Shown: positions 1 to 1,300 of the stretch, one piece after another
How positions within the stretch are numbered: the first letter of the stretch is position 1
Layout of the letters: the number at the start of each line of letters is the position of its first letter
Source of the DNA: a phage
Sequence record: PZ476263.1
Direction: 5' to 3' (one strand)
DNA: 64,000 nucleotides
The notes under the pieces: generated by a model
The model's input: only the letters and a program-made list of their open reading frames with translations
Databases searched by the model: none
Told to the model about the DNA's origin: nothing
Translations under genes and position numbers: made by a program

Positions 1-1300
1 GATAAAGCACGCTTCTCTCTTCTTGTCAAATAAAAATTTATTTTTTCTTTCTTGCCAGAATATCGAGGGTGACTTGCCCCAATGTTGGGAGGGCCGTCGG
101 TCGTGGAATCTATCAAGTTGGAATGATTCGACCTGCAACCTTTATTGTTGGGATAGTCACGTCTGTAATCGTCCCAAACCAGGCGGGGCGCGGAGTAGGG
201 GAGTAGTCGGGTCGTCAGTCAATCCATTTTGGCAACTGGTCCGGCTTAGTGCGTATAAGTTGTATTATGTTAAATGCAGATCGAAATCGGTATTCTAAAT
301 CAGATTCAGAAGTCAATAGAAATCTTTAACTTTATTGTTGGAAGGGCACAACATTTTTCTTGACAAGTCGAATCAAAGATGTATTGTGGATTGAAAATAA
401 ATGAAGATAATGCTTGACTTCTTGGATATTTTGAAAACATCGGACCCCCCTCCCCCTCCCCCGAGAGCGGCGTGCCTAGCACCAGTGCCAACGCACTCAA
501 CAAAAAAGATGCAAACATCCTCTGCTTTCTTGCTGACGAAGAACAAGGTCAAGGGACACCACTGGCGAGCCTCTTTAGGCTACCCCTTTGGATATTTTGG
601 GCAGGATAAATAATGGACCCACCCCGTGGAGTATCCATCATAAAATTTGGCGGGGAGGTATATTTTATGACCTGTGAGATATTTTGTGGGATATTCACAG
701 GCGGCATACCCCGTAAGAGGTGACTCAAAATTTTGGCGAGGGGTATAAAAACTAAAAAGTGGTCGTTTAAAATTCAGGCTGGAGGTCCACTCAGGGTAGG
801 CATATACTGGAAATTCTAAACTATGAGGGATGGATGTATAGGGAAGGGAGGTGACTCTGTGGGAAGTGGATGTACACACGAGCCTCACTAGGCGAACGTG
901 ACTCTGTGGACAATCGGAATAACATGAAGTAGGTCAGTCTCTTCAGAAAGTCTTGACCATTGTGGAAATATATGAAGTAATCCGTCAACCAAAATGGTTT
1001 ACATTGTAGAAAGTAAACCAAAATGGTTTAGATGTGGGTAAACAGATGTGCCTCGACAGGCAAAGTGGTGTGCCTCAGTAGGCCAACAGTGGTTACTCTT
1101 TAGGCAAACTACCTAATTTTGGGATGAACTGATATTTGTGGGAATCGTTGTACGATATTTGGGCATTATTGTATGCAGTGTACAACAGTTTGGAAGGACT
1201 ATGTAGTTTGGTGGCACAACATTTTGGGATGGGAAGATGAGTTTGGTTGCAATCCAGATGCAAAAAGCACCCACTTTTGGGGTGCTCTCTGTAGTTCAGG
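1..1300. repeat. Repeat-rich, apparently non-coding region with dispersed short TTTTGG(G)-type motifs, a C-rich tract (445-463) and duplicated 14-nt words
   Basis: Repeated words: tttattgttgg at 141 and 331; gtgactctgtgg at 851 and 899; accaaaatggttta at 988 and 1018; many (a/t)ttttggg copies. ORFs here are short and mutually overlapping with no convincing RBS. Confidence 0.5.

Follow-up and report, generated by a model that had tools for sequence, protein, structure and literature searches.

Bases 1 to 1300 of a Vequintavirinae phage sequence: a probable left genome end with a direct terminal repeat and a T7-type packaging site

In phages T7 and T3, the pacB site and arrays of short repeats (SRL and SRR) reportedly adjoin a terminal repeat of 160 bp. 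The cos site of phage lambda includes cosN, at which two-fold symmetric staggered nicks are made, and cosB, in which R sites for the small terminase subunit are repeated on one side. Terminal repeats have also been described for phages nearer to the one examined here. Gotham (genus Vequintavirus) was reported to possess 459-bp terminal repeats, with one specific packaging start sequence in all virions; KPP-1 (genus Mydovirus) was assigned a direct terminal repeat (DTR) of 514 bp on the basis of twofold read coverage and PhageTerm analysis, which classed it as T7-type; and Escherichia phage Jab of the subfamily Vequintavirinae (142,100 bp, GC content 40.09%) was reported to have a 475-bp DTR, found by CheckV. 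The subject of this analysis is the first 1300 nucleotides (nt) of a 64,000-nt stretch of phage DNA (sequence record PZ476263.1; hereafter, the window). We read these bases as two things, a terminal repeat (1-476) and a unique flank (477-1300). With a probability of about 0.8, we take them to be the left physical end of a Vequintavirinae chromosome and its T7-type maturation and packaging site, the flank of which ends at a terminator. A genome end or packaging region was among the options offered by an initial annotation of this sequence; it is borne out by homology to the repeat of phage UPEC06 at both boundaries, by the 475-bp DTR of Jab, by a boundary motif like that at the termini of Gotham and KPP-1, by motifs conserved across genera and by the lack of conserved coding sequence.

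Matches to the region in GenBank came from six phages only, all of them Vequintavirinae: the Septuagintavirus phages A5-4, A7_1, W70 and A73, plus LTH01 and UPEC06. The window encodes five tRNAs (Met, Tyr, Gly, Gln and Pro) and has a GC content of 39.9% (44% in the region 1-1300). Since the published description of Jab agrees in its five tRNAs and its nearest relatives and gives a similar GC content (40.09%), the phage of the window is very probably Jab. A search of IMG/VR and JGI metagenome contigs with an exact 25-mer from the invariant block described below gave no match, and no relatives were found among viral contigs with the product of the first gene (1302-1691) as protein query; the comparison set therefore stayed at the six GenBank phages for close comparison and Gotham, isim (also Vequintavirus) and KPP-1 for wider comparison. 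Gotham and KPP-1 share no blastn-detectable similarity with the window beyond short motifs. The records of Seu621 and KpS8 begin at rIIA and were of no use for the study of termini.

The DTR was placed by homology to UPEC06. Bases 1-462 of the UPEC06 record are identical (100%) to bases 142679-143140, the last 462 bp at its far end, and base 1 of the window aligns with base 1 of that record while window base 476 aligns with its base 462. The repeat in UPEC06 and the homology of both its limits thus point to bases 1-476 of the window as the left DTR, which in the published description of Jab measures 475 bp. The counterpart at the right end is located beyond the window, and 1-1300 do not recur within the 64 kb. 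Repeat limits fall at homologous nucleotides in independent genomes, both for the window and UPEC06 and for Gotham, Pr121LW and EcoIv14a_Aya. In the Gotham record, a repeat is annotated at 1-459 and the first coding sequence (CDS) is reached only at 1498, preceded by a minus-strand terminator; the repeat limits of Pr121LW and EcoIv14a_Aya (1-459) are identical to those of Gotham. The KPP-1 DTR is located between convergent genes. Locus tags in the records of W70, A73 and A7_1 begin a new count in or close to this region, suggestive of a break there in the original assemblies.

When each boundary was read on the strand on which the repeat lies 3' of the cut, a consensus was apparent at the DTR limits, 5'-TGYYA^GRC-3' (^ marks the cut), and its two copies are inverted, one limit carrying it on the top strand and the other limit on the bottom strand. 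In UPEC06, the left limit reads TTTGCTA^GACAAAAC (core TGCTA^GAC) and the right limit, on the bottom strand, GCTGCCA^GGCACGGC (core TGCCA^GGC). The right limit of the repeat in the window, designated B1, reads GGTGCTA^GGCACGCC on the bottom strand; its core, 5'-TGCTA^GGC-3', lies at 474-481 on the minus strand and predicts a cut at 476/477. In Gotham, the left limit is GCTGCCA^GGCGGACG (core TGCCA^GGC) and the right, on the bottom strand, TATGTCA^GACAAGTT (core TGTCA^GAC). KPP-1 served as an out-of-sample test of the motif at its published coordinates: the left limit, GGTGCTA^GACGGACA (core TGCTA^GAC), is a perfect match at the published position and one of only two top-strand matches in 4.5 kb, with none on the bottom strand, while the right limit, ATTGCTA^AACACAAT on the bottom strand (core TGCTA^AAC), matches at 7 of the 8 positions. 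The motif at B1 thus has counterparts in the same register at the right limit of UPEC06, both limits of Gotham and the left limit of KPP-1, with the 7/8 match at the right limit of KPP-1. Altogether, TGYYA^GRC stands in exact register at seven of eight boundaries from three genera and the clade of the window, the eighth agreeing at 7/8 positions; by our own calculation, the chance of a fixed-register match to this 8-position motif is approximately 1 in 8192 per site.

A conserved open reading frame (ORF) of 89 amino acids (aa) is found on one side of the repeat in Gotham and on the other side in UPEC06, from which it follows that the records of Gotham and KPP-1 run in the opposite direction to the window. 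Because of this inversion, the left limit of Gotham corresponds to the right limit of UPEC06, with which it agrees over 11 nt. In the divergent Vequintavirus isim, both cuts are identical to those of Gotham, though the sequence diverges immediately after the right one. Phage BME3 (subfamily Stephanstirmvirinae; PP239276), a further candidate for testing the boundary motif, was set aside, as its record contains internal duplications and the motif was not seen there. In this record (L010, L011), 146169-146956 repeat bases 1-788 and 147030-147371 repeat bases 1-342, a 'DTR-L' is annotated on the minus strand between the recurring blocks, and the sequence looks mis-assembled around its ends.

The repeat itself consists of three parts of differing conservation. 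The part next to the left boundary, B2 (1-69, plus strand), starts with 5'-GATAAAGC, contains a polypyrimidine tract (CTTCTCTCTTCTT, 12-24) and is 74-77% identical to the six relatives; in those with records in circular form it is preceded by TGCTA^. Gotham and KPP-1 share its layout of a cut followed by RACA and then by a CT-rich tract. The middle of the repeat (70-248) is variable, with approximately 42% column identity to the relatives, and cannot be aligned. It carries GTTGG repeats on the plus strand at 84, 117 and 147, and the window and its relatives each keep four to six copies of GTTGG(R)A in their repeat middles, on the same strand. The part next to B1 (249-476) is nearly invariant (93-96% identity to the six relatives) and is more conserved than the adjacent CDSs (83-91%). 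Within it, a C-rich tract of the form C6TC5TC5 (CCCCCCTCCCCCTCCCCC, 445-462, plus strand) ends 14 nt inside B1; the tract is kept in all seven close phages, with a difference of 1 nt in length in the window, and a similar tract, CCCCCCTCCCCC, is found in Gotham in the orthologous flank and not in the repeat. A candidate sigma-70-like promoter (TTGACA-16 nt-TATTGT, 360-387, plus strand; 10 of 12 consensus positions) points towards B1. Its -35 hexamer and spacer are invariant in 7/7 phages and its -10 hexamer has a single change, to TATTGC, in UPEC06. In A73 (L006, about 3661-3770), approximately 105 nt from the initial part of the terminal repeat were seen to be partly duplicated in tandem.

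The richness in short repeats that had been remarked on for bases 1-1300 is well above expectation: 25 repeated 10-mers were counted, compared with 1.25 ± 1.5 in 500 dinucleotide shuffles, none of which reached 25, and only one of 95 other 1300-nt windows reached this count. The individual repeats listed by the initial annotation were all recovered except for its family of more than eight copies of (a/t)ttttggg, which does not hold for exact copies (ATTTTGGG occurs three times, at 594, 1116 and 1221) and does so when up to one mismatch is allowed, there then being 11 in 1-1300 (eight on the plus strand) and 54 in the whole 64 kb. Those recovered include the C-rich tract described above, CTTTATTGTTGG (140-151 and 330-341), GTGACTCTGTGG (851-862 and 898-909, plus strand; one to three copies in relatives, partly as 21-nt tandem units), GTGCCTC(G/A) (1048 and 1070) and two plus-strand 21-mers of the type (G/A)TCAACCAAAATGGTTTA (984-1004 and 1013-1033), which are two copies of a near-palindromic AACCAAAATGGTTTA unit also found in four of the six relatives. 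The word GGCACAACATTT occurs once in the repeat (345-356) and once in the flank (1213-1224), and GTGGCACAACATTT occurs in the Gotham repeat (L008, 91-104), in an orientation relative to the boundaries opposite to that of GGCACAACATTT in the window. Sharing of this 12-mer with the Gotham repeat was rejected as a signal, given the opposite orientation and the finding that 10 of 100 shuffles give at least two matches; it could be due to chance or reflect an orientation-independent site.

The non-coding unique flank of the left end (477-1300, plus strand) is marked by short words that favour one strand. In an unbiased word count of 476-1300, the most enriched 5-mer was TTTGG (11 on the plus strand, 1.2 expected; two on the minus strand), followed by TGTGGG, TTTGGG, GTGACTC and GATATTT, every one of them strand-specific. 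TKTGG occurs 17 times on the plus strand of the flank and twice on the minus strand, and in all seven close phages the flank holds 14-17 copies on one strand versus 0-3 on the other, against a background of 1.7-3 per kb. TTTGGG is specific to the clade of the window. KKTGG was considered as a signature unique to the flank and rejected, being equally dense in coding DNA at 47-48.4 kb: the minus strand of 47100-48430 has 18 copies in 1300 nt, as dense as the terminal flank, inside small minus-strand ORFs, which probably reflects codon or amino-acid composition.

Two further motifs connect this flank with those of other genera. CTCTTYAGG, of which the remaining 62.7 kb of the window has no copy, is present on the plus strand at 571-579 (as CTCTTTAGG, the core of GCCTCTTTAGGC) and at 1096-1104, with related GCCTCNNNAGGC copies at 882-893, 1050-1061 and 1072-1083; in all, GCCTCNNNAGGC has four copies, all within 569-1083, where 0.12 would be expected across the whole window. 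Two copies of CTCTTYAGG are found in six of the seven phages of the clade, one in W70 and four in the orthologous flank of Gotham, all on the same strand, and the first of these is 88-120 nt from the boundary in the window, A5-4, LTH01, A7_1, A73, UPEC06 and Gotham. In W70 it is 934 nt from the boundary, beyond an HNH insertion. GATATTT (in extended form, GATATTTKKGG) occurs on the plus strand at 591-597, 678-684, 1131-1137 and 1154-1160, four copies versus 0.22 expected and none on the other strand; a further copy is located inside the DTR at 425-431. Across nine phages it keeps the same orientation to B1 with no copy on the other strand, there being four copies in the window, four in Gotham and two to three in KPP-1. 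Thus CTCTTYAGG and GATATTT recur in the Gotham flank, and GATATTT in that of KPP-1 as well, without alignable sequence. An array of protein-binding sites, another option raised for this region, would be reasonable for 477-1300, judged from these strand-specific motifs and their conservation across genera.

Among the close relatives, the middle of the flank varies by the gain and loss of repeat modules through indels that are not multiples of three. The flank closes with a second nearly invariant block (1064-1300, plus strand; 90-97.5% identity to relatives), dense in TTTGG, TGTGGG and ACAACAKTTTGG units, to which LTH01, A7_1 and W70 add one extra unit of 20-21 nt. Both this block and 249-476 are more conserved than the neighbouring CDSs, while the repeat middle and the flank middle vary. 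The insertion in W70 (L005, 4339-4821) is an ORF for a 160-aa HNH_3 endonuclease (Pfam E = 5e-13) located approximately 100 nt outside the repeat boundary, and the similarity of W70 to the other phages breaks approximately 10 nt outside that boundary. The flank at the right end (A5-4, L001, 3180-3768; other relatives too) is likewise gene-free, over approximately 0.6 kb, and carries CCCACAAA(GAAAG) repeats, with 4-6 copies versus 0-2 on the other strand. As the left flank has the reverse complement of this word, TTTGTGGG, there is weak mirror symmetry between the two flanks. Several palindromes resembling Fur boxes, such as TGATAAGGATTATCAT and AATGAGAATAATTATCATTTGC, were observed at the termini of KPP-1 (L013, 2398-3148) and BME3 (L010, L011); none was noticed on reading bases 1-1300 of the window, where no search for them was made.

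The flank is followed by a leftward gene block. An intrinsic terminator for this block (1261-1290, minus strand) has a GCACCC/GGGTGC stem followed by a T-run; hairpin and U-tract are present in both the minimum-energy and the centroid folds of the minus strand, and stem and T-run are invariant in 7/7 phages, with two differences in the loop of A7_1. A consensus scan had no entry for 1261-1290. The first real gene (1302-1691, minus strand) is predicted to encode a protein of 129 aa, is the last of the leftward block and has a full-length, stop-free counterpart in each of the six relatives. Their records show the region as a convergent, gene-free gap of approximately 1.8 kb, bounded on one side by a rightward block and on the other by the leftward block that begins at 1302.

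The claim that bases 1-1300 lack convincing genes stands, in that no ORF in this region is conserved across the six relatives in the way of its neighbours: ORFs of at least 45 aa are each truncated, frameshifted or without a start in the relatives, and the two real genes flanking the region, used as a control, are full-length and stop-free in 6/6. Conserved protein-coding genes in related phages would have spoken against a non-coding region, and in this comparison the only ORF to stay intact is one of 44 aa (306-440, read from 440 to 306 on the minus strand), a doubtful gene. Six candidate ORFs, including one of 70 aa (306-518) that contains the 44-aa ORF, had no match in Pfam or PHROGs, a result that is uninformative alone since real neighbouring genes are also without matches (1302-1691, searched in both libraries, and two others, searched in Pfam). 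A scan of 1-2000 with Rfam covariance models gave no match at E ≤ 10. Folding z-scores for the two conserved blocks on both strands were -0.04, -1.8 (due to the terminator only), +0.3 and -0.4, so that RNA folding of these blocks gave no stability signal apart from the terminator.

The locus most resembles the termini of Gotham and KPP-1, with which it shares an orthologous position between convergent gene blocks, a repeat length in the range of 459-514 bp, flanks of 0.3-1 kb that lack genes and end in terminators, the TGYYA^GRC motif and strand-specific GATATTT and, in the case of Gotham, CTCTTYAGG in the orthologous flank. It differs in that those records are oppositely oriented and that the C-rich tract is in the repeat here and in the flank in Gotham. 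As in T7 and T3, there is a short, exact, non-coding direct terminal repeat with arrays of same-strand short repeats just outside it, and ends would be formed from concatemers with duplication of the repeat, the relative KPP-1 being T7-type by PhageTerm. Unlike T7 and T3, this is a 142-kb myovirus and not a 40-kb podovirus, its repeat is three times longer and dissimilar in sequence, and its genes are transcribed towards the ends, whereas those of T7 run from left to right; the inverted boundary motif is found here, and we cite no T7 counterpart for it. With lambda cos it would share a cut motif inverted on opposite strands, of a polarity giving 5' extensions, and a one-sided array of short repeats, so that, from the sequence, a symmetric motif and one-sided motif arrays of the cos kind appear to be present. 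In contrast to lambda, the stagger is approximately 475 nt and not 12 nt, and fill-in would yield a duplex repeat and not cohesive ends; cohesive ends without terminal duplication, the mark of a lambda-like cos, are not what the relatives possess, as they carry a duplex repeat of 459-514 bp at both ends.

These comparisons are consistent with the following scheme. In replicating concatemers, the region would form the junction of two genomes, lying between gene blocks transcribed towards each other. Terminase may recognise this junction through the strand-specific motifs of the flank (GATATTTKKGG, CTCTTYAGG and TKTGG), in the manner of lambda cosB or T7 pacB. It would then nick each strand once, the top one at the left boundary and the bottom one at the right boundary, at the inverted 5'-TGYYA^GRC-3' copies approximately 475 bp apart. 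The orientation of the motif predicts this polarity and hence 5' extensions that could be filled in. The two 3'-OH ends would then be extended by strand displacement or fill-in, so that each daughter end receives a complete repeat, as in the Watson model for T7. A bolder version, which we advance tentatively and rate at a little short of even odds, is that a 'giant cos' of this kind is used throughout the Vequintavirinae: an inverted pair of 5'-TGYYA^GRC-3' motifs 460-515 bp apart would be nicked on opposite strands, fill-in of the 5' extensions would produce the terminal repeat, and the conserved one-sided arrays of the flank (GATATTTKKGG, CTCTTYAGG) would load the small terminase subunit.

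Some of the properties described above would also suit other functions. Clustered direct short repeats in non-coding DNA are a feature of iteron-type origins such as lambda ori and plasmid oriV, and the initial annotation had named a replication origin as a further option, in which the repeats would serve as iterons or DnaA-type sites, beside packaging or instead of it. The region is non-coding and conserved, its short repeats are numerous and on the same strand, some with tandem spacing of approximately 21 nt in relatives, and four near-matches to the DnaA box (one mismatch) occur in 1-1300, among them TTGTCCACA inside the GTGACTCTGTGGACAA unit. However, about 1.7 such sites are expected and no perfect box is present, so there is no DnaA-box enrichment; the repeats have short cores (5-9 nt), belong to several families and are irregularly spaced, unlike phased iterons of 17-22 bp; an AT-rich unwinding element is lacking, GC content being 44% compared with 40% for the genome and 30% in the lowest 60-nt windows; and the region is positioned exactly at the DTR boundaries. 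An origin in 1-1300 is thus quite improbable. Small products, that is, the 44-aa protein or a non-coding RNA running from the promoter-like site at 360-387 across the G/U-rich repeats to a bidirectional terminator, could account for the conservation, perhaps in addition to packaging. The 44-aa ORF is intact in 7/7 phages and annotated in three of them (LTH01, W70 and A73), and a GGAGG-like G-tract precedes it by 8 nt; TTGACA-16-TATTGT is nearly unchanged in 7/7 with its one -10 change in UPEC06, and the hairpin at 1261-1290 could act as a terminator in both directions. Yet six of the seven substitutions in the ORF are non-synonymous and one is synonymous, with no sign of purifying selection on the protein; no minus-strand promoter was seen upstream of it when read by eye; the number of promoters in the region is not above that of shuffles; and the mini-CDSs annotated here in relatives disagree in strand and position, to which are added the lack of a protein family or Rfam match and the unremarkable folding z-scores. 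We consider such products unlikely. Protection from RecBCD by Chi-like sites, a sponge RNA with GGA sites of the CsrA type and a G-quadruplex or i-motif formed by the C-rich tract were also considered and set aside, either because nothing spoke in their favour or because of a wrong orientation.

The remaining alternative is that there is no fixed end at all: the genome would be circularly permuted and packaged by headful, the repeat at the ends of records would be an assembly overlap and the region a spacer between convergent operons. PhageTerm calls in two papers on Vequintavirus point this way, 'circular permutated' for bovine rV5-like phages and 'headful' for BpE1AUH; the DTR of Jab was obtained by CheckV on an assembly, and the gene blocks adjoining the region do converge, with terminators on either side. 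Against this, independent assemblies and two read-based analyses, from three genera, put the boundaries at homologous, motif-bearing nucleotides, Gotham, Pr121LW and EcoIv14a_Aya have identical 459-bp limits, and overlaps of 459-514 bp far exceed the k-mers that assemblers generally use. Limits that are homologous and bear the motif in independent genomes sit poorly with permutation and headful packaging, and this alternative is very unlikely.

Several points nevertheless weigh against a T7-type genome end and packaging site at 1-1300. Some reports on Vequintavirus phages call the genome circularly permuted or headful-packaged. The DTR in the window rests on the identification of its phage with Jab and on homology to UPEC06, the right genome end being beyond the window; the published call for Jab derives from the assembly rather than from mapped read ends, and the published length of 475 places the end one base away from the 476 obtained by homology. 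TGYYAGRC occurs six times in the 64 kb and the motif alone cannot specify the cut, therefore extra determinants are needed for the choice of the cut site. Of the flank words, TKTGG reaches high density in coding DNA as well, at 47.1-48.4 kb. The boundary motif was not seen in BME3, which belongs to a different subfamily and has an odd record, and no small terminase subunit was identified.

Elsewhere in the window, a divergent region between leftward and rightward gene blocks (48590-48960) is AT-rich, with a GC content of about 0.33. It possesses five copies of the palindrome AGATCT (approximately 48660-48735), a twofold direct repeat of TTCATTTCATTCATAA(A)TTAT and a promoter-like site (TTGACA...TATAGT) facing the leftward genes.

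No description of the boundary motif or of the cross-genus flank motifs was found in the literature searched; these are incremental, the repeat having already been published for Jab. The feature is ordinary in kind and no new kind of system is revealed. It does fix where the phage genome physically begins and thereby aids correct annotation: several of the tiny 'hypothetical proteins' annotated here in relatives are probably not genes. If true, the giant cos model would offer a sequence-defined and readily testable account of the way in which a large myovirus duplicates its short terminal repeats, and the boundary and flank motifs are sequences that can be mutated to examine the generation of short terminal repeats outside the T7 group. 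The finding also bears on genome engineering and on how packaging is understood in a subfamily that is employed in phage therapy and for which conflicting calls have been made, of defined repeats on the one hand and of headful or permuted genomes on the other.

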